Below are positions 79-60,990 of a DNA stretch of 64,000 bases, piece after piece. Location: the IMG/VR virus record IMGVR_UViG_3300020576_006967, positions 32,001 to 96,000 of that record. One strand, given 5' to 3'. The notes under the pieces were generated by a model, which searched no databases, was not told the origin of the DNA, and worked only from the letters and a program-made list of their open reading frames with translations. This DNA comes from a virus. Taxonomy: Duplodnaviria; Caudoviricetes. Every line of letters starts with the position of its first letter. The first letter of the stretch is position 1. Position numbers and translations under genes: made by a program.

Positions 79-1113
79 ATGATAAATAAAGTTTCCAAAA
101 AAGATATTAATCTCTTTGTAAGAGAATACAATTCTGGAGTTAGTATTTATAAAATAGCTAAAAATACAAAATTTACTCCAGCCACTATAAAAAAATGGAT
201 TATTATAAATGGTATTGAGCTAAGAAAAACACCGTTTGATTTTTCTAAAAATAAAACAAGAAAACCCACAAATGAAAAATTACTAATTGAACTTTATGTT
301 AAAGAAGGAAAAGAACTTTCACATGTATGTCAAAAATTAAAAATTTCCAGATCACTTGCTAAATATTATTTAGAAAAAAATAGAATAAAATTAAGAGAGA
401 AAGGTCCAAATAAAACTAAGTTTACAGATAAAGAAAAAAAAGAAATAATAAGACTTTACACAATTGAAAAAAGGGGTGCTAAATATATAGGCTCTATTTT
501 TAACAGATCAGATACTTGTATGACTTATTGGTTAAATAAGTGGGGTGTTAAAAAGAATACAAGATCAGAGATTTCTTTAAAAATCAGAAAGGTGTATGGG
601 CCAACCAAAGGATTTACTGGAAAAAGACATACTAAAAGTTCTAAAAAACAAATTTCAGAAAGTGGATTAAAAGCTTGGGATGAAAACGACAGACTTCCAA
701 TAATAGGTAAATCAAGAACTTTTAATACTAAAATTGGTAAAGTTTTAGGTTCATATGAAGTAGCATATATTCAAAAACTTACAAATGAAGGAAAAATTTT
801 ACCTAAGCCGAATAGAAAAAAAATAAAAACACCATTTGGACAATATGTTCCAGACTTTGACACGGATAAAAATTATATAGAAATAAAAAGCCCATTTACT
901 TTATCAGTGTGTAAAGGCAAAACTTCAAATGGTAAAGGTAAATTAACAGACATTCAGTGGAAAAAAATTCAATGGGTAAGAAAAAATATTAAATCAGTTA
1001 AAGTAATTGTTATAAAAAAACAAGATGCATTAAATTTATTTAAGCAAGCAATAAAAGAAGGCTTGGTTTTAGACAAAGTAGAAATTAAAAATTCACAATA
1101 TAAAATATTATAA
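79..1113 (+). CDS. Putative homing endonuclease (HTH repeats, NUMOD3-like motif, PD-(D/E)XK nuclease)
   Basis: FTGKRHTKSSKKQIS NUMOD3-like motif; YVPDF...YIEIKS catalytic motif; very basic. Confidence 0.65.
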   Translation: MINKVSKKDINLFVREYNSGVSIYKIAKNTKFTPATIKKWIIINGIELRKTPFDFSKNKTRKPTNEKLLIELYVKEGKELSHVCQKLKISRSLAKYYLEKNRIKLREKGPNKTKFTDKEKKEIIRLYTIEKRGAKYIGSIFNRSDTCMTYWLNKWGVKKNTRSEISLKIRKVYGPTKGFTGKRHTKSSKKQISESGLKAWDENDRLPIIGKSRTFNTKIGKVLGSYEVAYIQKLTNEGKILPKPNRKKIKTPFGQYVPDFDTDKNYIEIKSPFTLSVCKGKTSNGKGKLTDIQWKKIQWVRKNIKSVKVIVIKKQDALNLFKQAIKEGLVLDKVEIKNSQYKIL

Positions 1114-1115
1114 TT

Positions 1116-1712
1116 ATGGGGCTTAAGTATGTAGTAATTGATATAGAAACATCTGGAATAGATCCAGAAAACAATCAGATTCTTGAATTTGGCGCTGTTA
1201 TAGAAGATAGTGCTAATCCTTTGCCAATAGAAGAACTTCCAAAGTTTAAATGTATAGTTAGACATGACTCTTATACAGGAAGCGCATTTGCCATTAATAT
1301 GAATAAGCGTATCTTTGATATTTTGGCTAAATTTGAGGGCGCAAAGAATTATGAAGATGGTAAAAAGATTGCCGAAGAACACAATATTTTAACTCCTGGT
1401 GCAATGTGCGTAAGTTTTCTTAATTGGGTTAAAGAAAACGGAATAGATAACACAATAAATATTGCTGGGAAAAATTTTGCTGTGTTTGATAAAGTGTTTT
1501 TAGAACAATTACTCACATGGAGAGAAGATATAACATATCTTTGCGAAAGACGCTATTTGGATCCTTCTATGCTTTATGTGGACTGGAAAACAGATAAGAA
1601 ATTACCAAGCCTTGATGAATGTTTAAAAAGGGCTGGTATAAATCGACAAGTAACCCACGACGCTCTTCAAGATGCAATAGATACTTTGTTGTGTTTTAGA
1701 GCTAAATATTAG
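1116..1712 (+). CDS. DEDDh 3'-5' exonuclease
   Basis: IDIETSG, NFAVFD, THDALQDA motifs. Confidence 0.85.
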   Translation: MGLKYVVIDIETSGIDPENNQILEFGAVIEDSANPLPIEELPKFKCIVRHDSYTGSAFAINMNKRIFDILAKFEGAKNYEDGKKIAEEHNILTPGAMCVSFLNWVKENGIDNTINIAGKNFAVFDKVFLEQLLTWREDITYLCERRYLDPSMLYVDWKTDKKLPSLDECLKRAGINRQVTHDALQDAIDTLLCFRAKY

Positions 1713-1713
1713 C

Positions 1714-1739
1714 AACCTTTTAGTTAAATTTGCGTATAA
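1714..1739 (+). promoter_or_regulatory. ECF-like promoter AAC-N16-CGTATAA
   Basis: aaccttttagttaaatttgcgtataa upstream of gltX ATG 1753; one of 13 copies. Confidence 0.75.
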
Positions 1740-1752
1740 CAATAAAAAAGCT

Positions 1753-3325
1753 ATGTCAAACAATATAAAAGATGGTAAGGGGCGTGTCCGTGTGAGATAC
1801 GCCCCTTCATAATTCACCCACAGGATTTCAACATATTGGCGGTATTCGTACAGCCCTATACAACTACCTATTTGCAAAAAAGCATGGTGGCGATTTCATT
1901 CTTCGTATAGAAGATACTGATATGACTCGTTATGTTCCTGAGTCAGAACAATACATTATTGATGTTCTGGCTTGGATGGGTATAAGCCCAAATGAAGGTT
2001 ATGGTATTGGTGGAGACAAAGGCCCTTATAGACAATCAGAAAGATTGGCTCTTTACAAAGAACACGCTCTTAAATTGGTTGAGTCTGGTCACGCTTATTA
2101 TGCATTTGACACAGAAGAAGAGTTGGATGGCCTTAGAAAATCATTTGAAGGTACAAAGAAAAAATTTGCATATAATTGTTTTTCAAGAGATAGACTTAAA
2201 AATTCTTTAAGCATGTCTGAAGAAGAATTGAAAAGCGCTTTTGATTCAGGTGTGTCTTATGTAATAAGATTCAAGATGTCAAAAGGCGTTGATGTGTCTT
2301 TTAGCGATTCTGTTCGTGACAGCGTAAGTTTCAATACAAACAACTTGCAAGACGAGGTTTTGATTAAAGCCGATGGCTTCCCAGCTTATCATATTGCAAA
2401 CGTGGTCGATGATCACTTTATGGAAATCACACATGTGATTCGTGGCGTAGAGTGGTTATCAAGTACGCCTTTACATGTGCTTATATATGATGCGCTTGGT
2501 TGGGACAAACCAACGTTTTGTCATTTGCCGCTTGTTAATGGGCCAGATGGAAAAAAGTTAAGCAAGCGTGAGGTGGCCAATTACAAGTTTCCAATTTTTC
2601 CTCTTGGAGTTGATACAAAAGACGAAAATGGTGTTGATATTCACTATGAAGGTTTAAATGAGTATGGATTTGATCCACTTCCGCTTTTAAACGCTTTGTC
2701 TTTGACTGGGTGGAATCCTGGAGGAGAAAAAGAGCATTTTACAAAGGAAGAATTGGTAGATTTGTTTACTCTTGAAAGGATTAATAACGCTAGCGCCATG
2801 TTTGACATTAAAAAGGCAACTAGTTTTAATGCTGCATACATACGCTCTTTGGACAACTTGGAGTTATTCAACAATTATATTGCTCCTGAAGTTGAGTTTT
2901 TCCCTTACAAATACGATGATGAAAAAAATGTGGCTATTGCAATAGCAGCTAAAGAAAGAGCTAATTTTGGAAAAGAATTGGTTTCAAATATTATTTATTT
3001 TTTTGGGGATGTTGTTTTTACTTCTGCTTTAACTATAAAGTTCCCTGAAGAATTTTCTAGTGTTATGAACGTGTTCTTAACAAAGGATATTGAATGGAAT
3101 GAAAAAACTATTCATAATGAATTAGAGGCCACTGCGCATGGTTTGGATACTCAAATGAAGTACATTGGGCCAGACTTAAGAAAAGCTCTTACAGGTGGAA
3201 TGCCAGGTCCCACAAACGCATATATTATGTGGGTTCTTGGAAAAGAAAACTCCTTTCAAAGAATAAACGCTTTGCTTAACTTGATTAAAGAAGGTTCTTA
3301 TAATAAGAATCCTTTACTATATTAA
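1753..3325 (+). CDS. gltX: Glutamyl-tRNA synthetase, interrupted by a 7-nt insert at 1810-1816
   Basis: 1753-1809 encodes MSNNIKDGKGRVRVRYAPS; from 1817 a different frame gives PTGFQHIGGIRTALYNYLFAKKHGGDFILRIEDTD, continuous with ORF 1922..3325 (GPYRQSER, VVDDHFMEITHVIRG, KLSKR). Confidence 0.9.
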
Positions 3326-3356
3326 AAAGTTGCAGGTAATTCCTGCAACTTTTTTT
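3324..3356 (+). terminator. Intrinsic terminator after gltX
   Basis: aaaaagttgcagg-taatt-cctgcaactttttt hairpin plus T run. Confidence 0.8.
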
Positions 3357-3372
3357 AATTTTATACGTATAA
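3347..3372 (+). promoter_or_regulatory. ECF-like promoter overlapping the terminator
   Basis: aact...cgtataa with N16 spacing. Confidence 0.7.
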
Positions 3373-3400
3373 CAAATGCAAGATAATTCTTGAAATATAA

Positions 3401-3946
3401 ATGGAAAAAAATAAAAAAGAAATTCCGACAGAAACAGAAAGAAAATTTTTACTAAAAAGATTGCCAAAAGCAATTTTATCCAAACAGAAACATGACGTTC
3501 TGAATATTGTTCAGTATTATTTTAAAATTGAAGGTAAATGGCAAAGATTTCGCATTTCTCAAAATGCAAAAACTTTAAAAGTTAAGTACATACACACCAT
3601 TAAGGGCCCTCAGATTAGTTTGGGTTCATGTCTGGAAGACGAGAGAACAATTACAAAAAAAACGTTTGAAAAGATTTATTCTCAGTATAAGAGTGATGGT
3701 CTTGTAATTGAAAAAACAAGATATGTCATAAAACATAAAGGGTTTAAGTTTGAAATAGATGCCTATCATGGTATTTGTTTGGTCACTTTAGAAGTTGAAG
3801 TTCCGACCATAGAAACTCTTTATGAGTACCCAATTGATTTAAAAGATGAAATTGTGTTTGAGCTTACTGGAATAGAACAATTCAGTAACAAAAACCTAGC
3901 TTTTAAAAATAAGAATCATAAATTGTATTTTAAAATTAAAAAATAA
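3401..3946 (+). CDS. CYTH domain protein
   Basis: ETERKFL, IEKTRY, FEIDAY, LEVE motifs. Confidence 0.8.
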   Translation: MEKNKKEIPTETERKFLLKRLPKAILSKQKHDVLNIVQYYFKIEGKWQRFRISQNAKTLKVKYIHTIKGPQISLGSCLEDERTITKKTFEKIYSQYKSDGLVIEKTRYVIKHKGFKFEIDAYHGICLVTLEVEVPTIETLYEYPIDLKDEIVFELTGIEQFSNKNLAFKNKNHKLYFKIKK

Positions 3947-3948
3947 TT

Positions 3949-4377
3949 TTGTTACTTATGGAACCGATTAAAGAAGAAGATATGAATTTTTTTATTTTCA
4001 TTTCTTGTCAAGAAAAAATCACAAATCCAACAAAGGCATCAATGGCGGTAATACAAGCTATGCTTTTTTCAGAAGGAGCTATTAGTGTTGAAAAAATAAA
4101 TGAAAGCGCATTCGTTTTTTCAACAACAATGACATACGAAGCAATAAAGAAAAAGCTAAGTAGAACAAAAATAGGTTTTATAATTTTGGATATTGGCGTT
4201 TTGTATGATCTAGAACAAATATTTGGAACTGGGCCAAACATAAAATTTGAATTGTTTAAAAATATCGCCGAACAAAAATTTTCTAAAGAAAAACCAAGAC
4301 TGCAAAAAATTTCTGAAAACTCAGTTGAAAAAGAAAGATTTGAGTTGGCAGCTAAACTTAGGGATATAAAAAAATAA
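3949..4377 (+). CDS. Hypothetical protein with C-terminal UvrB/C (UVR) motif
   Basis: EKERFELAAKLRD; start may be ATG 3958. Confidence 0.55.
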   Translation: MLLMEPIKEEDMNFFIFISCQEKITNPTKASMAVIQAMLFSEGAISVEKINESAFVFSTTMTYEAIKKKLSRTKIGFIILDIGVLYDLEQIFGTGPNIKFELFKNIAEQKFSKEKPRLQKISENSVEKERFELAAKLRDIKK

Positions 4378-4380
4378 CAA

Positions 4381-4962
4381 ATGAACGTAAACAAAGAAGT
4401 AAACTCAAAAAAAATAAAAAAAGCCATTGTAGTAAATCTTATAGGTGGCCCAGGCGTTGGAAAATCTATTATAACATCAGATTTATTCTCAGCGCTTAAA
4501 AGGAAATATGTTAGTTGCGAAGTTTCGCCTGAGTATATAAAAAAGAAATTAAGAGAACAAGCTTTAAAAGCCGTTCAAAGTCAAATATATATATTTGCAA
4601 AACAACAATTTCAATTGTTTACACTAAAAGATGATGTAGAGGTTACTGTTACAGATTCTCCAATTATTCTTTCTGCCATATATGATAAGACTGAATGTAA
4701 ATTTCTTAGAGGTTTAATTTTAAAAGAATTTAAAAAATACAAAAATCTAAACTTTTATATTGAAAGAGATCCAAGTGCCGAATACGAACAAGAGGGACGA
4801 TATCAAAACTTGGATGGCGCTAAAAAAGTTGATGAAAAAATTAAAAAATTTTTAAAAAAGCATGGCATAAAGCACACGATAATTAATGGCATCGGAGAAG
4901 ACTCCTTGCAAACAGTAATTAACGAGGTAAATAAAATTTTAAAAAAGAGAAATAAAAAATGA
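4381..4962 (+). CDS. P-loop nucleotide kinase (NadR/AAA_28-like)
   Basis: NLIGGPGVGKS, PEYIK, VTDSPI, GRYQ. Confidence 0.7.
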   Translation: MNVNKEVNSKKIKKAIVVNLIGGPGVGKSIITSDLFSALKRKYVSCEVSPEYIKKKLREQALKAVQSQIYIFAKQQFQLFTLKDDVEVTVTDSPIILSAIYDKTECKFLRGLILKEFKKYKNLNFYIERDPSAEYEQEGRYQNLDGAKKVDEKIKKFLKKHGIKHTIINGIGEDSLQTVINEVNKILKKRNKK

Positions 4963-5804
4963 TAAAAGATAATTTGCTAACTTCTTGGTTAAAAGAACAA
5001 GAGGTTAAACATAGTAAAAGTTGGCTTGTAGTGCTTTTTGCACAACCAAGCGTGTATTTGTTTACATTGTTGAAGAAAACGTGTATAATTGGCTTTATAT
5101 TGCTGGTCATTTATTTAATACTTGAAAAACTTGGCATAAAAGAACAGGTGCTTCCAAATACTTTTCATAGTGTGGTTGGTGTGGTTATTGGTTTATTACT
5201 TGTGTTTAGAGTGAGTACAGCATATGATAGATGGTGGGAGGCAAGAAAGCTTTTTGCCTCATTTCATGCTGCAATACTATACTTAAAAACTATACAAATA
5301 AAATATAATAAACAGGAATCAGATTCTGCATTGTTAAAAATAAATGAAAGTTTTTTTGATTATTGCGCCTCAATAAGTGTAAAAGAAATTTCTGCATGTA
5401 AAAATGCATTTTTAAAAAACTTAAATTTGTTGGACGACTATTTCAAAGTAGATCAAAGTGCTATAAATTTAAGTATGGTTGAAAAACACAAAATAGATAT
5501 TTTGGCTATTTTTACCTCTGTAGAAAGAATTAAAGATACGCCAATTCCACAGTCATATTCTCTACATATTAAAATTTCAATCATGTCCTATATTTTAAGT
5601 TTACCTCTTGGTTTATTTCATGAGTTTGGTTATGGTTCAATACCATTTGCAATGTTTATTTATTTTGTGATTGGCGGAATTGAAGTTATTAGTAATGAAA
5701 TAGAAAACCCTTTTCAGCAAGCTCCAAATGATCTTCCTTTAAAGGATTATATGGATGAAAATAAAAAATACATACATGAACAAGGAACAACAAAAGAATC
5801 TTAG
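4959..5804 (+). CDS. Bestrophin-family ion channel
   Basis: LLVFR...AYDRWWEAR, ERIKDTPIP, EIENPF...NDLPL. Confidence 0.85.
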   Translation: MIKDNLLTSWLKEQEVKHSKSWLVVLFAQPSVYLFTLLKKTCIIGFILLVIYLILEKLGIKEQVLPNTFHSVVGVVIGLLLVFRVSTAYDRWWEARKLFASFHAAILYLKTIQIKYNKQESDSALLKINESFFDYCASISVKEISACKNAFLKNLNLLDDYFKVDQSAINLSMVEKHKIDILAIFTSVERIKDTPIPQSYSLHIKISIMSYILSLPLGLFHEFGYGSIPFAMFIYFVIGGIEVISNEIENPFQQAPNDLPLKDYMDENKKYIHEQGTTKES

Positions 5805-6321
5805 CAAATCGCTTTCTTATTGGCTACGTCATAAACCAGAAAATTTGGGAATTGTACTTGAAAAAGACGGTTGGGCAAATGTGTCTGAACTTATTGAAAA
5901 AGCTAAACAAAAAATAGAGTTTAGCTTGGAAGACTTGAAAGAGGTTGTTGCCGAAAACGACAAACAACGTTTTTCTTTTAATGAAGATTTTACAAAAATA
6001 AAAGCAAATCAGGGTCACACAGCAGAGGTGGATATAAAATTTAAAAAGATTGTCCCTCCAGTAATTCTTTATCATGGAACTGTTGATAAATTTTTTGATT
6101 CTATAAAAAAACAAGGTCTTACAAAACAAAAAAGGCATCATGTTCATTTAAGCAAAGATAAAGAAACCGCAATAAGTGTAGGTTCTAGACGTGGTAAAGC
6201 AATTGTTTTAGAAGTTGATTGTAAAAAAATGTTAGCTGATGGATTCGATTTTTTTCTTTCAGATAATGGCGTGTATCTTACAGATGAGGTTCCGTCAAAA
6301 TATATAAAAATTTCTGTATAA
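5776..6321 (+). CDS. kptA: RNA 2'-phosphotransferase Tpt1/KptA
   Basis: LSYWLRH, NDKQRF, ANQGH, LYHGT, RHHVHLS, VGSRRG. Confidence 0.9.
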   Translation: MNKEQQKNLSKSLSYWLRHKPENLGIVLEKDGWANVSELIEKAKQKIEFSLEDLKEVVAENDKQRFSFNEDFTKIKANQGHTAEVDIKFKKIVPPVILYHGTVDKFFDSIKKQGLTKQKRHHVHLSKDKETAISVGSRRGKAIVLEVDCKKMLADGFDFFLSDNGVYLTDEVPSKYIKISV

Positions 6322-6339
6322 TATTTGTCTGGGTTTTTG

Positions 6340-6370
6340 TTGATTATGTGAGGTAAAATTGTTATATTTG
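6340..6370 (+). promoter_or_regulatory. Bacteroidota housekeeping-type promoter (TTG...TATATTTG)
   Basis: TAnnTTTG at 6363-6370 ahead of ATG 6388. Confidence 0.6.
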
Positions 6371-6387
6371 CCACAAATAATCGCACT

Positions 6388-6726
6388 ATGTCTATAAAAA
6401 TTTCTTTTAAGAGTACCCAATCTGAAAAAAGATGGCTAGAACTATACAACGAAAAAACAGCACTTCAAGCAAAAAAGAAAACAGCCGCAATTGAAAAAAA
6501 GATAAGTTCTTTAACTAGTTTAATGACTGCTTGCAAAGTGGGTTTTAATCTTTCCGAGGCAAAAGTAAAAAAAATATCAAAAACATTAATTACAACAACT
6601 GGTATAGCTAAAACAAGATACGCTACAATTCCAGATGGAGTTAAATCTGAAGTGTTGTTATTTAAAGATGTTGTTGTTACATATGCGGTTATTGGCGGAG
6701 AAGTTTTATTTCGTGAAAAACAATAA
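6388..6726 (+). CDS. Hypothetical protein
   Basis: ORF with its own promoter. Confidence 0.6.
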   Translation: MSIKISFKSTQSEKRWLELYNEKTALQAKKKTAAIEKKISSLTSLMTACKVGFNLSEAKVKKISKTLITTTGIAKTRYATIPDGVKSEVLLFKDVVVTYAVIGGEVLFREKQ

Positions 6727-6750
6727 CCTTTTTTGTTTTTTTACGTATAA
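6725..6750 (+). promoter_or_regulatory. ECF-like promoter
   Basis: aaccttttttgtttttttacgtataa. Confidence 0.75.
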
Positions 6751-6758
6751 CAAATATT

Positions 6759-8303
6759 ATGACATTAATTTCTGTACAGGGCAAGCCAAAAACAATAACA
6801 ACTAAAGACAAAGAAATTGTTTTTAGCTTACATACTATTATACTACTCATAGGTTTAGACGGATCAGGTAAAAGCAATTTTGCTAAAACGCATTTGGTTC
6901 CAAAAATTAAATCCTTTTCAAGTCAAGGGAAACAAATTTCTGTTGTAAATATTGAACAAGATAAAATTCTTGAAACAATCACTGATGGTCAAAGTAAGGA
7001 GAGGACAGAATTCTCTTATATGGCACAAAAAGCATCTGTTTCCATGTTAGAAAGCTCTGCTAGATACCCTGTATCTGCTGACTTTATCATTTTAGATTGC
7101 GATGCAATGGATGAAAATTTTAGATTGCAAGTTTCTATTATTGCAGAAGACAATGGTTATAAAATACACGCTTTCATCTTTGACCTTCCAGTTGAGGAGC
7201 ATTTTTATATTGATCTTTCTGGTGAGAAGGTTCAAATAAAAGGGCCTCAAAAAAAGAAAATTAGACAATTAATGTCTGGTCAAATTCAAAAAGAAAAATA
7301 TCACAAAGTAGACACAATAACATCTAGGGCGTATTCAGATTTTAGTTTGGATGATTATATCCACACAGATCAATTTACGCTACCAGATGGCCCAGAATAT
7401 GTTTTAATAGGAGATATTCATGGTTGTCTTGATGAATTTAAAGAATTGTTAATTTTAAATGGTTTTGTTATAGGTGAAGATATGAGGGTTAGTCACCCAG
7501 AAGGTAAAAAAGTTGTGCTTATTGGAGATCTTGTTGACAAGGGGTATGACATAATTGGCGTTATCGAGTTTGCTTATGCCAACATTGGTGTTTTTTTCAT
7601 GGTTCTTGGAAACCACGAATCTTTCGTTTACAGATTGTTAAAAAAACTAGCCAGCACAAAAGATTCAACTCCAGAACTTAGAAAAGAGTATTTTGAAACA
7701 TACGAGCTTTTAAAAGAATATCAAAAACCAGATGAGGATAAATTGTATGAAAAATACATTTACTCTATTGAGGAAAAAGAAATTGTTTCTTCTAAAGAGG
7801 ATTTTTTAGAAGAATATTATAGAGAAAACCCAGTTCCAACTCCACAAGAAATAAAACGCATCACTGAAGTGCGAGAAAAGTTTTTTGCTGTGGTTGAAAA
7901 CATGAAAAGTTTTTTTGTGCATAAAGATTTCATAGCTACACACGCACCATGTGAGTCGAAGCATCTTGGAAAGATTAACGATGCTTCCTTGAAGGCTGCT
8001 AGAGATTTTAGATATCCTAAACAATCTGATTTTGAAGATTTTAGTTCTTTTATGTATGAATTTGATTTAAGAACAGCTTATTTAAGAATTGAGGCAAATG
8101 ATAATTATAAATTTCATATCTTTGGACACGTAATGACGAAAGAGGTATCTAGGTTTAAAAATAAAATTTGTATTGACACTGGATGTGTGTCTGGCGGCAA
8201 GCTTTCTGCTTTAACTATTAAAGGGAAAAAAATAACTATCAATCACGTTGAAAATACTGGTAAAACAAAAAAACAAAAAGAACTATTTAATTTTTTCCAA
8301 TAA
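6759..8303 (+). CDS. Pnkp-like P-loop kinase + metallophosphoesterase fusion
   Basis: GLDGSGKS; IGDIHGC, GDLVDKG, GNHE, FGH, IDTGC. Confidence 0.8.
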
Positions 8304-41486: not shown

Positions 41487-42392
41487 TTAAAGATATTCTT
41501 TTACAATTTTAAATTTGGTGCTGTGTCTTAATTTTCTTAAAGATTTTTCTTTAATTTGTCTAACACGCTCCCTGGTTAAATCGACTTTCACCCCAATTTC
41601 TTCAAGACTTTGAGCTGGTACACCTTCCTCTAAACCGAAAAATGCAACTATTACCTCTTGTTCTTTTTGAGTTAATCTAGATGCTAACATTTGTTTAATT
41701 ACAAACTTCAAATCTTCATTTATTAAACCAGCATCAACGTTTAAAGATGGATCCATTTTTATAAGATCAAGAAGTGTTGTTTGATTGTCGTCGCTAAAAG
41801 GTGTATCTAAGGATTGTGTTTTATTTGAGGTTGTTAGAAGCAAAGCAACATCTTCAATTAAAAAATTCTTTGCTGGAAATTTTTCAGAAAGATAAAAAGC
41901 AATTTCTTCAATAGATGGAGGTCTCTCAAGCTCTTGTTCTAATGCCGATGTTGCATTTCTTATTTTGTTTAGATCGGCAACTTTATTTAATGGTAATCTT
42001 ATTGTTTTTGAATGTTCGTTTATTTGTTGCATAATAGATTGACGAATCCACCACACAGCATAAGAGATAAATTTAAAGCCTCTGGAATGATCAAAACGTT
42101 TTGCGGCCTTAATTAAACCTTCGTTTCCAGCTGATACGAGATCTGGTAGAGATAAACCTTGATTTTGGTATTGTTTTGCAACACTAATAACAAATCTTAA
42201 ATTTGATTTTGCCATTTTGTTCACTGCTAACTGAGATGCATGCGGGTCTTCGTTGTATGCTTGAATTATTTTAGCAAGCTCAACTTCTTCTTCTGCTGTA
42301 ATCCCAGGGATTGTTCCAATTTCATTTAAGTACTTTTCGAAAGAAATTGATTCTCTGTTTGTGATTTGTTTAACGATTTTAAGTTGTCTCAT
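41487..42392 (-). CDS. rpoD: RNA polymerase sigma70 factor, Bacteroidota primary-sigma type
   Basis: MRQLKIVKQITNRES, NLRFVISVAKQY, GFKFISYAVWWIRQ, LTRERVRQI. Confidence 0.92.
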   Translation of the reverse strand: MRQLKIVKQITNRESISFEKYLNEIGTIPGITAEEEVELAKIIQAYNEDPHASQLAVNKMAKSNLRFVISVAKQYQNQGLSLPDLVSAGNEGLIKAAKRFDHSRGFKFISYAVWWIRQSIMQQINEHSKTIRLPLNKVADLNKIRNATSALEQELERPPSIEEIAFYLSEKFPAKNFLIEDVALLLTTSNKTQSLDTPFSDDNQTTLLDLIKMDPSLNVDAGLINEDLKFVIKQMLASRLTQKEQEVIVAFFGLEEGVPAQSLEEIGVKVDLTRERVRQIKEKSLRKLRHSTKFKIVKEYL

Positions 42393-42444: not shown

Positions 42445-42482
42445 GTAAAAAAATGAAAATAAATTGAGAAATTTTAAAAATA

Positions 42483-42521
42483 AAAAACCCTCAACTTACT
42501 ATTGTTCGGTTGAGGGTTTTT
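42483..42521 (-). terminator. Terminator at the 3' end of the tmRNA coding piece
   Basis: aaaaaccctcaac...gttgagggttttt hairpin. Confidence 0.75.
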
Positions 42522-42686
42522 GTTCGATCCTTAAACCAATTCAGCCACAAGGACTGCACTAGTTTCAGGCGTATTAGCGTAAGCGATTGCGCTTTGAGCT
42601 AATACCTTTGTTAGGTTTTTGCCGTTTGATAGGCTGATTAATCTCTCCTTGTAGCTTTTGATTCGTGTTCGAAATCATTCGCCCCC
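42483..42686 (-). ncRNA. ssrA: tmRNA coding piece (5' acceptor strand plus tag frame) of a permuted two-piece tmRNA
   Basis: Begins GGGGGCGAAUGAUUUCGA; predicted resume codon GGC at 42623; tag GKNLTKVLAQSAIAYANTPETSAVLVAELV* to 42531. Confidence 0.82.
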
Positions 42687-42700
42687 ATTTTTTCAGTTAA

Positions 42701-42883
42701 TTACTTAACCGAGGTTGTAGTAGCTGCTGTTGTCATTGTATCAGCGCAAACCGCTTTACAAGAATCAACCGCTACAGTGTCACACTTAGGCGCTTCCGTT
42801 TCCGTAGCTACTTCAGTGGCCGTATTTGTACAAGCTCCTAGAGCTAATGCCAAAACGATCAATAGTTTTTTTGTTGTTTTCAT
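42701..42883 (-). CDS. Small lipoprotein inside the tmRNA intervening segment
   Basis: Basic N-terminus, hydrophobic core, LGAC lipobox; Thr/Ala-rich. Confidence 0.75.
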   Translation of the reverse strand: MKTTKKLLIVLALALGACTNTATEVATETEAPKCDTVAVDSCKAVCADTMTTAATTTSVK

Positions 42884-42884
42884 C

Positions 42885-42950
42885 TAGTGGAAGCGCAGGG
42901 TATAGAGCCCTGGTTACACAAATTTCGACTACATATCAACGAGCTTAATC
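42885..42950 (-). ncRNA. ssrA: tmRNA acceptor piece (P2 strand, T arm, 3' acceptor strand)
   Basis: CAGGG-CUCUAUA-CCCUG T arm then CGCUUCC-A; pairs with GGGGGCG including G3:U70. Confidence 0.82.
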
Positions 42951-43003
42951 TGATTGTAAATATACAGAAATTTTTCCAATTCCAAATAGAAATTGAAAAA
43001 TAA

Positions 43004-44974: not shown

Positions 44975-45598
44975 ATGAAAAAAATTTGTAATATATGTGA
45001 TATTGAAAAAGAATTAGTTGATTTTAACAAGTGTAAAAATAGCAAAGATGGATTTCTTAATTATTGTAAAATTTGTAACAATGTAAAAAGGAGAAAAAGA
45101 ACAGCTAAAAATAAAGATTTATTGAATGAATGGAAGAGAAACTATTTAAAAAACAATCCAGAACAACGAGAAAAACATCTTAAAAGGTTGAAAATTTATA
45201 ATGAAAAAAACATTGAAAAGCATAGGAAGTATGCTTTAGCTTTAGAGAAGAAAAGATTAAAAACAGACAAAGTGTTTTTAATCAGAAAAAACATAAAACA
45301 ATCAATAAAACATTCTTTTAAAAAAAAAGATGTAAAATGTAAAGAAAAAATGCAAAACATTTTAGGGTGCACATACAAAGAATTTAAACAATATATTGAA
45401 AGCAAATTTGAATCATGGATGACATGGGATAATTATGGTAAATTTAATGGAGAATTAAAATGTGGTTGGGACATTGACCATATTATACCAGTGTCATCTG
45501 CTAATTCAGAAGAAGAAATAATTAAGTTAAGCCATTACACAAACTTCCAACCTTTGTGTAGCAAGGTAAACAGACACATTAAAAGTAATAAATTTTAA
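44975..45598 (+). CDS. HNH-type homing endonuclease, paralog of 22753..23466
   Basis: YIESKFESWM...WDIDHIIP...HYTNFQPL. Confidence 0.75.
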   Translation: MKKICNICDIEKELVDFNKCKNSKDGFLNYCKICNNVKRRKRTAKNKDLLNEWKRNYLKNNPEQREKHLKRLKIYNEKNIEKHRKYALALEKKRLKTDKVFLIRKNIKQSIKHSFKKKDVKCKEKMQNILGCTYKEFKQYIESKFESWMTWDNYGKFNGELKCGWDIDHIIPVSSANSEEEIIKLSHYTNFQPLCSKVNRHIKSNKF

Positions 45599-45604
45599 AA
45601 AATT

Positions 45605-46177
45605 ATGACAGTAATAGTCGGTTTAATTGACAAAGAAGCTGTATATATAGGCGGCGATAGTGCGGCTATAGACACCTCAGAGTTATCTTATAGTTCAAGA
45701 GCGGACACAAAAGTGTTTCGTAAAGGTGATATGATATTTGGTTTTTCTGTTTCTTTTAGAATGGGTCAACTTCTAAGATATAAACTAAGAGTTCCGAACC
45801 ATCCTAGAGGAATGGATAACTTTCAATATATGGCAACTTTGTTTATTGATTCAGTTAGAAAGTGCTTTGATGATAACGGATATACATCTATGGACACAGA
45901 AGATGGTGGTGAGTTTCTAATTGGATATAAGGGGGGGTTATATTCAGTGCTGAGCGATTATCAAGTAGCTGAATCCAGACAAAATTACACAGCTCTTGGT
46001 TGTGGAGAGTCTTTTGCTATGGGGGCTCTTTATGCAACCAAAGAAAGGGACCCAATAAAAAAAATTGAGCTTGCTTTAAACGCTTCTGCCACATTCTCGA
46101 TGGGGGTTAGGCCACCTTTTGAAATTGTGAAGTTGGCTCACAAGAAAAAACCAGCAGCTAAAACAACTAGAAAATGA
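45605..46177 (+). CDS. Ntn-hydrolase (HslV/proteasome-beta-like) peptidase
   Basis: N-terminal Thr (MTVIVG), GGDS, ALGCG...AMGAL. Confidence 0.7.
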   Translation: MTVIVGLIDKEAVYIGGDSAAIDTSELSYSSRADTKVFRKGDMIFGFSVSFRMGQLLRYKLRVPNHPRGMDNFQYMATLFIDSVRKCFDDNGYTSMDTEDGGEFLIGYKGGLYSVLSDYQVAESRQNYTALGCGESFAMGALYATKERDPIKKIELALNASATFSMGVRPPFEIVKLAHKKKPAAKTTRK

Positions 46178-60525: not shown

Positions 60526-60990
60526 GTGGGAAAAATTAAAAAGATAAAAGAACCTTTTAGAATTGAAAATAGGAAGGCAAAATACGAATATAAACTTTTA
60601 GAAAGTTTTGATTGCGGTATTGTGTTGAAGGGCACCGAGATAAAGTCTATACGAGAGAATTCGGCTAATATAGGCGCTGCTTATTGTTATTTGTCAAACG
60701 GACAAGTTATAATAAAAAACATGCATATTTCTGAGTGGAAACATGCTACTACCACACACGATCCAACAAGGGACAGGGTTCTGTTGTTGAAAAAGAAAGA
60801 AATAGAAAAAATTACCAGAGAAGTTAAGACTGCTGGTATAACTCTTGTGCCGACGGTTCTTTACGAAAAAAAGAACATAGCAAAAGTTATCATCAGTTTA
60901 GCCAAAGGTAAAAAAACTAGAGATAAAAGAGATAAAATTCGTGAAGACAATATTAAGCGTGACACAGACAGAGAAATGAATTCTTTTTAG
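60526..60990 (+). CDS. smpB: SsrA-binding protein
   Basis: NRKAKYEY, GIVLKGTEIKSIR, HDPTR, LAKGKK..DKR. Confidence 0.93.
   Translation: MGKIKKIKEPFRIENRKAKYEYKLLESFDCGIVLKGTEIKSIRENSANIGAAYCYLSNGQVIIKNMHISEWKHATTTHDPTRDRVLLLKKKEIEKITREVKTAGITLVPTVLYEKKNIAKVIISLAKGKKTRDKRDKIREDNIKRDTDREMNSF

Follow-up and report, generated by a model that had tools for sequence, protein, structure and literature searches.

The window analysed here, a stretch of 64,000 nucleotides, comprises bases 32001-96000 of a 188,933-bp IMG/VR virus record whose completeness was put by CheckV at 74%. Its minus strand holds a compact unit in which, in order, a promoter-like element, an acceptor piece, the triplet CUA, a G, a 60-codon open reading frame (ORF), 14 nt of filler and a coding piece follow one another, with a phage sigma factor gene beyond them. 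The features of the unit are given below in the order in which they would be transcribed, together with the sigma gene and the gene for SmpB, which lies elsewhere in the window.

42957..42986, minus strand: promoter-like element, TTTG (42986-42983), 18 nt, then TATATTTA (42964-42957), from a reading of the sequence
42888..42950, minus strand: acceptor piece, 63 nt, from the RF04321 alignment, pair counts and compensatory changes
42950-42941, minus strand: distal-helix strand of the acceptor piece
42933-42928, minus strand: P2b strand of the acceptor piece
42923-42916, minus strand: P2a strand of the acceptor piece
42912-42896, minus strand: T arm, CAGGG/CCCUG, with the loop CUCUAUA
42895-42889, minus strand: 3' acceptor strand, CGCUUCC
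42888, minus strand: discriminator A
42885..42887, minus strand: CUA in place of a CCA tail, from the alignments
42687..42887, minus strand: intervening segment, 201 nt, from the first base past the discriminator to U(-1) before G1; RF04321 sets an insertion of ~198 nt exactly there
42701..42883, minus strand: 60-codon ORF for a predicted small lipoprotein precursor, MKTTKKLLIVLALALGAC..., from the ORF list, with its ATG at 42883 and TAA at 42703-42701
42482..42686, minus strand: coding piece, ~205 nt, starting GGGGGCGAAUGAUUUCGA, from the sequence, the RF04321 alignment, pairing and fold
42686-42680, minus strand: 5' acceptor strand, GGGGGCG
42679-42669, minus strand: D-loop analogue, AAUGAUUUCGA
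42668-42661, minus strand: P2a strand of the coding piece
42655-42650, minus strand: P2b strand of the coding piece
42645-42636, minus strand: distal-helix strand of the coding piece
42531..42623, minus strand: tag reading frame without a start codon, 30 codons, GKNLTKVLAQSAIAYANTPETSAVLVAELV, TAA at 42533-42531, from conservation
42482..42516, minus strand: intrinsic terminator, CCCUCAAC (42516-42509) pairing with GUUGAGGG (42495-42488), then a U run, from the minimum-free-energy fold
41487..42392, minus strand: phage sigma-70 family gene, immediately downstream of the tmRNA unit, with Pfam regions 1.2, 2, 3 and 4
60526..60990, plus strand: phage SmpB, the protein partner of tmRNA (PF01668, 165.6 bits; NCBIfam equivalog NF003843, 164.4 bits against a cut-off of 130)

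An earlier note on this DNA had proposed that the locus is a circularly permuted two-piece tmRNA gene with a lipoprotein gene between its pieces, and the parts it named, i.e., the acceptor piece, the T arm, CGCUUCC-A, the ORF start at 42883, GGGGGCG at 42686, the tag frame and the terminator, all lie in the sequence where it had put them. The succession of acceptor piece, intervening segment and coding piece on a single strand is that of a permuted tmRNA gene, and the element directly upstream of the acceptor piece on that strand is the likely promoter: its TTTG-N18-TATATTTA arrangement resembles the published consensus of the Bacteroidota -33/-7 promoter type. Both motifs are kept in six close lineages (the window, L091, L092, L182, L184 and L187), and in L189 the -7 motif alone is clearly kept. 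A sigma-70 consensus scan of the tmRNA strand produced no match, and GTATANNTTACA was rejected as a promoter word common to the tmRNA and sigma genes, the spacing being 1 nt apart. Inside the unit neither reading of the sequence nor the scan made a second promoter or terminator visible. The terminator stem covaries across relatives, and the terminator is absent from the output of a simple scan because its loop is 13 nt.

The A(-2)U(-1) before G1 is identical in every lineage, and the discriminator A is invariant as well. The triplet at the position of CCA is CCA in L092, CAA in L182 and CUA in L184 and L187; none of the 16 tRNA genes of the record encodes CCA, and neither a CCA-adding enzyme nor AlaRS was found in the 74%-complete record.

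Covariation between the pieces and the tag frame

The sigma gene (41487..42392) served as the syntenic anchor in the search for relatives. L182, L184/L185/L188, L187 and L189/L190 were reached via sigma homologues at 57-66% identity, L091 and L092 via homologues of the ORF, and in all of these relatives the tmRNA lies just upstream of the sigma gene. Farther afield, the 80 viral loci with sigma relatives at 52% identity or less gave no tmRNA within 4 kb, and a metagenome sigma scan yielded loci at 52-56% identity only, which is the range of Bacteroidota RpoD. BLAST against deposited phage genomes found no match, nor did an exact scan of IMG/VR with a 23-mer, and the IMG/VR matches to a T-arm 17-mer and a D-loop 16-mer were set aside as chance, lying in unrelated, GC-rich or coding DNA. 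A resume-region pattern matched 18 viral and >120 bacterial sequences, none of them a tmRNA by our own model; one marginal match (L276) lies, on a reading of its translation, inside an apparent peptidase coding region.

No Rfam model matched the window at gathering score. The earlier note had pointed to ARAGORN and to the Infernal tmRNA models as checks on its reading, and these two gave different outcomes. ARAGORN reported no gene in the window, in the record as a whole or in any of the relatives, and it was equally negative on in-silico constructs in which the spacer was trimmed to 10-150 nt, CCA was added or the pieces were re-ordered to the standard form; the spacer is therefore not the sole cause of non-detection. 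RF04321, the merged permuted-tmRNA model, aligned over its full length (1-213) in the window with 36.1 bits (E = 1.5e-5 for an 801-nt stretch, 7.9e-7 for the whole record), a score that, like those of all the relatives, falls below the curated gathering cut-off of 47 bits. L091 and L092 scored 32.3 and 33.1 bits and the short-spacer relatives 39.3-39.7, again as full-model alignments, with E from 1.5e-5 to 1e-3 when the window is included, and L182 did not reach the E-value threshold. Other models gave 13 bits (alpha model) and 27 bits (cyano model; relatives only). A standard tmRNA was not found in the whole record by RF00023 or ARAGORN.

The acceptor stem (7 bp, with G3:U70), P2a (8 bp), P2b (6 bp) and the distal helix (10 bp, with a single A.G mismatch) together join the two pieces over ~31 bp. 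These four helices with their G3:U70 pair are as the earlier note had described them, apart from the length of P2a: ACACGAAU/AUUUGUGU makes 8 bp in the window lineage only, the relatives being mismatched at the fourth position, where the Rfam consensus likewise has no pair. The note had also looked to covariation of these helices in related phages, and this was borne out. In a MAFFT alignment of six lineages, 93.6% of the cells of five helices pair, vs. 40-54% with the 3' partners slid, and 7 pairs have changed on both sides, vs. 0-1 when slid. Pairing is 83-95% in P2a, P2b and the distal helix, with both-side changes in 3 of the 7 pairs counted for P2b and 2 of 7 for the distal helix. Among the four ORF-carrying lineages there are 4 both-side changes (2 in the acceptor stem, 2 in the distal helix) vs. 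none when slid, so selection still maintains the pairing that spans the 198-nt insert. A covariance model made from L184 and L187 alone detected L189, the most distant lineage, with 61.8 bits (E 7e-12), and in the alignment fitted to that model, which is so biased towards its structure, 11 pairs have changed on both sides, 3 of them in the T arm. G3:U70 is invariant in all seven lineages, and the five helices are kept there by compensatory changes.

Other parts of the RNA are less regular. The T loop is CUCUAUA in the window, where it is non-canonical, GUCGUA (6 nt) in L092 and L182, UUCGUUA in L184 and UUCGAAU in L189. No PK1 pseudoknot was recognisable between P2 and the tag, 12 nt (AGCCUAUCAAAC) separating the distal helix from the GGC at the head of the tag frame; a PK1 candidate, UAUC/GGUA, was discarded as absent in L091, and a loop-loop pairing between the pieces, GUUGAUA/UAUCAA, as broken by changes in L092. 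As the covariance model R1 is unable to span the 198-nt insert and reports each long-spacer gene as two forced matches, alignment A5 was left out. The minimum-free-energy fold of the 468-nt precursor (z = -4.9) recovered the long-range P2a, P2b and distal helices, and in the same fold the 3' acceptor strand pairs with GGAAGCGC (42797-42790, within the ORF), not with GGGGGCG, a pairing that is perfect in the window lineage alone. The fold of the first 121 nt, i.e., of the nascent RNA, is uninformative (z = -0.83). From the full-length RF04321 alignment and the covariation in seven lineages, we conclude that the earlier note was right to see a phage-borne, circularly permuted gene here, and that the locus is a real two-piece tmRNA gene of a divergent lineage.

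The tag frame bears its own marks of selection. A peptide of 28-30 aa is kept in eight loci of seven lineages, with in-frame indels, and has the consensus GK..K.LA..A(M/I).(Y/W)....ET(S/N)A..VAELV, its VAELV end being unlike the usual LAA-type degron. The resume codon is probably GGC (42623-42621). A covarying hairpin lies within the frame, and a covarying helix closes on its last codon and stop. In five of the eight loci (the window, L184, L187, L188 and L189) no ATG, GTG or TTG opens the tag frame.

Our preferred reading, to which we give a probability of about 0.8, is that a large phage carries a working tmRNA gene in two pieces, the intervening segment of which has come to be occupied by a small lipoprotein gene. 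A challenge to it comes from L091, L092 and L182, in which the tag frame continues one of 50-51 codons that opens with an ATG overlapping G1, so that a product of 50-51 aa could be translated there in the ordinary way; a gene caller called those frames in L091 and L182. The tmRNA parts of the ORF-bearing lineages might accordingly be a relic, serving as tRNA-like processing or stability signals that flank a two-gene messenger for the lipoprotein and a peptide of ~50 aa begun at that ATG, and both the sub-threshold Rfam scores and the drift of the T loop from its canonical form in exactly the ORF-bearing lineages would suit such a relic. In the window lineage (9 contigs), however, the ATG frame stops after 16 codons, and most of the substitutions in the first 22 codons of the frame change the amino acid while being balanced by compensatory ones in the RNA helices. 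Covariation in the acceptor stem and the distal helix extends to the ORF-bearing group itself, G3:U70 is kept throughout, and SmpB is present in the record, so that we regard a relic as improbable.

The lipoprotein-type gene in the spacer

By inspection, the product of the 60-codon ORF reads like a putative lipoprotein precursor, with MKTTKK, then LLIVLALA, then L-G-A-C18, with the lipobox-like LGAC, and a mature part of 43 aa with three further conserved Cys. Four lineages keep the signal peptide, the LGAC and the four Cys, the signal region varying at K6T, T4I and A12T only, and in all four the ORF is exactly 60 codons long. Selection is evident on both reading frames of the unit, and for the ORF dN/dS is 0.23-0.32 (three sequence pairs; dS 0.24-0.43). 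Judged by these rates the ORF is under purifying selection, and the proposal in the earlier note that a lipoprotein-type gene fills the spacer is upheld. Its homologues have 82-88% identity, and every one found sits in this tmRNA spacer; none was found outside it among 5.8 billion protein clusters. NCBIfam lipoprotein-signal matches were weak (best E 0.004), and the nearest clusters by a feature-based comparison were Bacteroidota "putative lipoprotein" at 0.88, a weak lead only. As to what the lipoprotein does, our guess is an early-expressed envelope protein, e.g., a receptor blocker.

The host phylum is probably Bacteroidota, the sigma factor having its nearest bacterial homologues, at 53-56% identity, in Bacteroidota RpoD. 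This has a bearing on the suggestion that the tmRNA is real and the ORF unexpressed, either a frame that has stayed open in a widened spacer or an insertion in decay. The ORF has no family in Pfam, PHROG or NCBIfam, the ESM Atlas model of its product is poor (pLDDT 0.41), and its start codon abuts structured RNA and has no Shine-Dalgarno-like leader, all of which would suit such a suggestion. Shine-Dalgarno pairing is not generally used in Bacteroidota, however, and the low dN/dS of the three sequence pairs, whose dS reaches 0.43, together with the fixed length and the retention of signal peptide, LGAC and Cys across four lineages, makes an idle frame very improbable. The identical ORF was found on 9 contigs, four of them with the same layout and from four different sequencing runs, and diverged copies exist too, so that the misassembly across 42686-42890 against which the earlier note had warned is excluded. 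More broadly, a chance resemblance, or an artefact that joined unrelated pieces, would account for the negative ARAGORN results and the lack of an Rfam match at gathering score, but it is already refuted by independent contigs (many runs, and diverged relatives with the same layout) and compensatory changes, the covariation being strong and E being 7.9e-7 for the whole record.

In close relatives the space between the pieces is far smaller. Past the CUA triplet it measures about 13-14 nt in L184, L187 and L188, and about 20 nt in L189, and because the spacer of these three related lineages is only 13-20 nt, the lipoprotein gene is, on this comparison of sequences, cargo that a single subgroup carries, and does not characterise the tmRNA lineage as a whole. 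A sigma tree set the phage clade apart from Bacteroidota RpoD (support 100/100) and placed the ORF-carrying L182 beside the short-spacer group (94/92). A single gain of the gene is therefore unproven, and later loss or recombination is possible.

A proposed course of expression and maturation

Under the preferred reading of a working tmRNA gene with a lipoprotein gene inside it, one promoter (about 42986-42957) would give a transcript of ~470 nt that carries the acceptor piece, the ORF, the coding piece and the terminator. The two pieces would pair over their ~31 bp and, with the T arm, form a tRNA-like domain, on which RNase P would be expected to cut before G42686 and the tRNA 3'-end enzymes to trim to A42888, with a host enzyme then adding CCA. 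AlaRS would charge the RNA, and the phage SmpB would deliver it to stalled ribosomes, where translation would resume, probably at GGC 42623, and add the 30-residue tag that ends in VAELV.

With no second promoter or terminator seen in the unit, either the tmRNA precursor or the excised spacer would have to serve as messenger for the ORF, and its likeliest template would be the nascent or unprocessed precursor. The AUG stands 5 nt past the discriminator, and 14 nt separate the stop from G1. A ribosome that initiates on the ORF would cover the 3' acceptor strand, and at either end of the ORF a ribosome would mask one of the two strands of the acceptor stem; given these distances, translation and acceptor-stem formation should exclude each other on any one molecule. 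Such coverage points to an order in which the ORF would be translated on nascent or unprocessed RNA, with folding, RNase P cleavage and 3' processing to follow, and processing would either end the life of the messenger or free a nearly leaderless RNA.

From this course of events arise three broader readings, which we entertain only as a set and consider rather doubtful. The first is that tmRNA maturation may be a built-in switch, the lipoprotein being made only on a nascent precursor whose acceptor stem is still unformed, and processing then destroying the messenger or freeing a near-leaderless mRNA with ends made by tRNA enzymes. The second is that permuted tmRNA may have arisen a fourth time, independently, in this clade of Bacteroidota phages, out of a phage tmRNA of standard form; the contig of a related phage, L008, encodes a standard tmRNA whose acceptor stem (GGGGGCG/CGUCUCC) is the same and whose resume codon is GGC. 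The third is that the 30-residue VAELV tag may steer the proteins that bear it away from the usual degradation in the host.

Known permuted tmRNAs and other nested genes

The novelty of this locus lies in its divergent lineage of tmRNA, in its cargo, a lipoprotein gene, and in a tag with the unusual end VAELV. The earlier note knew of no described case, and none turned up in the searchable papers, among which no paper was found that describes a protein or cargo gene between the pieces of a permuted tmRNA gene. Circularly permuted two-piece tmRNA genes themselves are well documented in Alphaproteobacteria, Betaproteobacteria and Cyanobacteria (RF01849, RF01850, RF01851; merged as RF04321; PMC11915505). 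With these the phage locus shares the order of the pieces, a tRNA-like domain made of two RNAs, the 7-bp acceptor stem with G3:U70, the discriminator A, the T arm and P2, as well as a tag frame without a start codon and SmpB as a partner. It differs from them in scoring 32-40 bits with RF04321, in being ARAGORN-negative, in lacking a recognisable PK1, in its VAELV tag of 28-30 aa, in the protein gene in its spacer and in a likely host phylum that uses the one-piece form: Bacteroidota genomes have 24,380 standard vs. 48 permuted tmRNA instances (Table S2, PMC11915505). That a two-piece tmRNA with its own SmpB and a long, odd tag would be brought into a phylum of one-piece tmRNAs raises the question of the fate of the tagged proteins.

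Phages, too, were already known to carry such genes, as two-piece tmRNA genes occur in marine phages, viz., the OM43 phage Melnitz, pelagimyophages and cyanophages (PMC9004378). The present locus resembles them as a phage-borne, permuted ssrA of aquatic, uncultured lineages that is thought to help manage translation in the host. Theirs, however, are of alpha or cyano type and are detected by ARAGORN, some have a glutamine riboswitch, and no spacer gene was reported for them (PMC9004378), whereas ours belongs to a divergent lineage, adjoins a phage sigma gene and has SmpB in the same record. A lineage of phage two-piece tmRNAs that escapes both ARAGORN and the Rfam cut-off also means that surveys built on these tools, e.g., of huge phages, undercount trans-translation in phages.

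Protein genes within tmRNA genes have a single known precedent, in the intron form, 36 of 883 such genes having a LAGLIDADG homing endonuclease in a group I intron (PMC11915505). In both cases a protein gene is nested in a tmRNA gene, and the removal of the insert from the mature RNA, as in the intron form, would be shared by the phage locus. There, however, the gene lies in a self-splicing, mobile intron of the T-loop and serves the spread of that intron, whereas the phage locus has no intron: its gene, for a lipoprotein instead of a nuclease, is inserted between the discriminator at the 3' end of one piece and G1 at the 5' end of the next, and would leave by ordinary processing of tRNA ends. 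Consistent with this, searches found no match to an intron family in Rfam and no nuclease domain in the ORF in Pfam or PHROG. The spacers of permuted tmRNAs also have their exceptions, one (GCA-2688965__sp002688965.2) holding an intact tRNA-Ala, which was called a unique feature, and another a repetitive element, with no mention of a protein-coding spacer (PMC11915505). Like these, the phage insert is more than short filler; unlike them, it is protein-coding. A spacer that has so far been treated as short, discarded filler is here a slot for a selected protein gene.

The release of a messenger by tRNA enzymes has parallels of its own, since co-transcripts of tRNA and mRNA are parted by RNase P and RNase Z in the tRNA-tufB operon of E. 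coli and in the tRNA punctuation of mitochondria. By analogy, enzymes of tRNA ends would be expected to part a stable RNA from a messenger in the phage locus as well. The precursor of a stable RNA would thereby double as a messenger whose two ends would both be made by tRNA-end processing, a compact case of translation in competition with RNA folding and processing on one molecule. In contrast to the tufB type, though, the phage messenger lies inside the gene for the stable RNA, and both of its ends would be set by the maturation of one and the same tRNA-like domain.

Spacer ends and pairing within the lipoprotein frame

The short spacers of two relatives, L189 and L184, show likeness to the two ends of the long, lipoprotein-encoding spacer:

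L189:1699-1721, short spacer
L184:1738-1752, short spacer

That of L189 carries ATGAAA at the position matching the start of the lipoprotein ORF, and that of L184 has GTTAAAAGTAAAT in place of GTTAAGTAA, the final codons and stop of the ORF-bearing genes. This likeness hints either that the ends of the ORF were derived from the spacer of the ancestor, or that a deletion gave rise to the short form.

Within the ORF, GGAAGCGC (window 42797-42790) can pair with GCGCUUCC (42896-42889), the 3' acceptor strand, over 8 bp without a mismatch, and this pairing is favoured over the acceptor stem in the minimum-free-energy fold. Because just 6 of the 8 positions pair in L091 and L092, two relatives that also have the ORF, it may be a lineage-specific competitor of the acceptor stem, or may have arisen by chance.

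An ATG overlapping the first base of the coding piece, G1, is in frame with the tag in three ORF-bearing relatives, giving a frame of 50-51 codons through the tRNA-like domain:

L091:3196-3351, G1-overlapping ATG frame
L092:326-481, G1-overlapping ATG frame
L182:1735-1887, G1-overlapping ATG frame

In the window and the short-spacer relatives, the frame from such an ATG closes after 8-16 codons.

Surrounding genes

Two genes lie 3 kb from the tmRNA, and since the tag of this RNA has an unusual end, a phage protease in its neighbourhood is of possible interest:

window 44975-45598, plus strand, endonuclease VII-like gene
window 45605-46177, plus strand, HslV-family peptidase-like gene (phrog_1040, E 7e-19)

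One short-spacer relative, L188, has a reverse-strand insertion, the locus being otherwise collinear:

L188:1287-1880, minus strand, 197-codon gene that separates the tmRNA terminator from the sigma gene

The record as a whole carries 16 tRNA genes (Phe, Val, Leu, Arg, Gln) in arrays:

record (G000:C1) 932-8049 and 186524-186596, outside the window, tRNA genes (ARAGORN)

Inspection of the ARAGORN gene ends found encoded CCA in none of the 16, and the bases directly following are mostly A-rich.

A standard tmRNA in a related phage

The viral contig L008 encodes a sigma factor that shares 50% identity with that of the window phage, and it also carries a Hatchet ribozyme (55.4 bits; L008:1197-1399). 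Its tmRNA is one-piece and standard, scoring 70.5 bits against the Rfam model RF00023:

L008:7216-7720, standard tmRNA, 505 nt with large insertions

It has the resume codon GGC and a 23-aa tag ending RLAA, and its acceptor stem, GGGGGCG/CGUCUCC, is identical to those of the permuted genes of L092 and L184.
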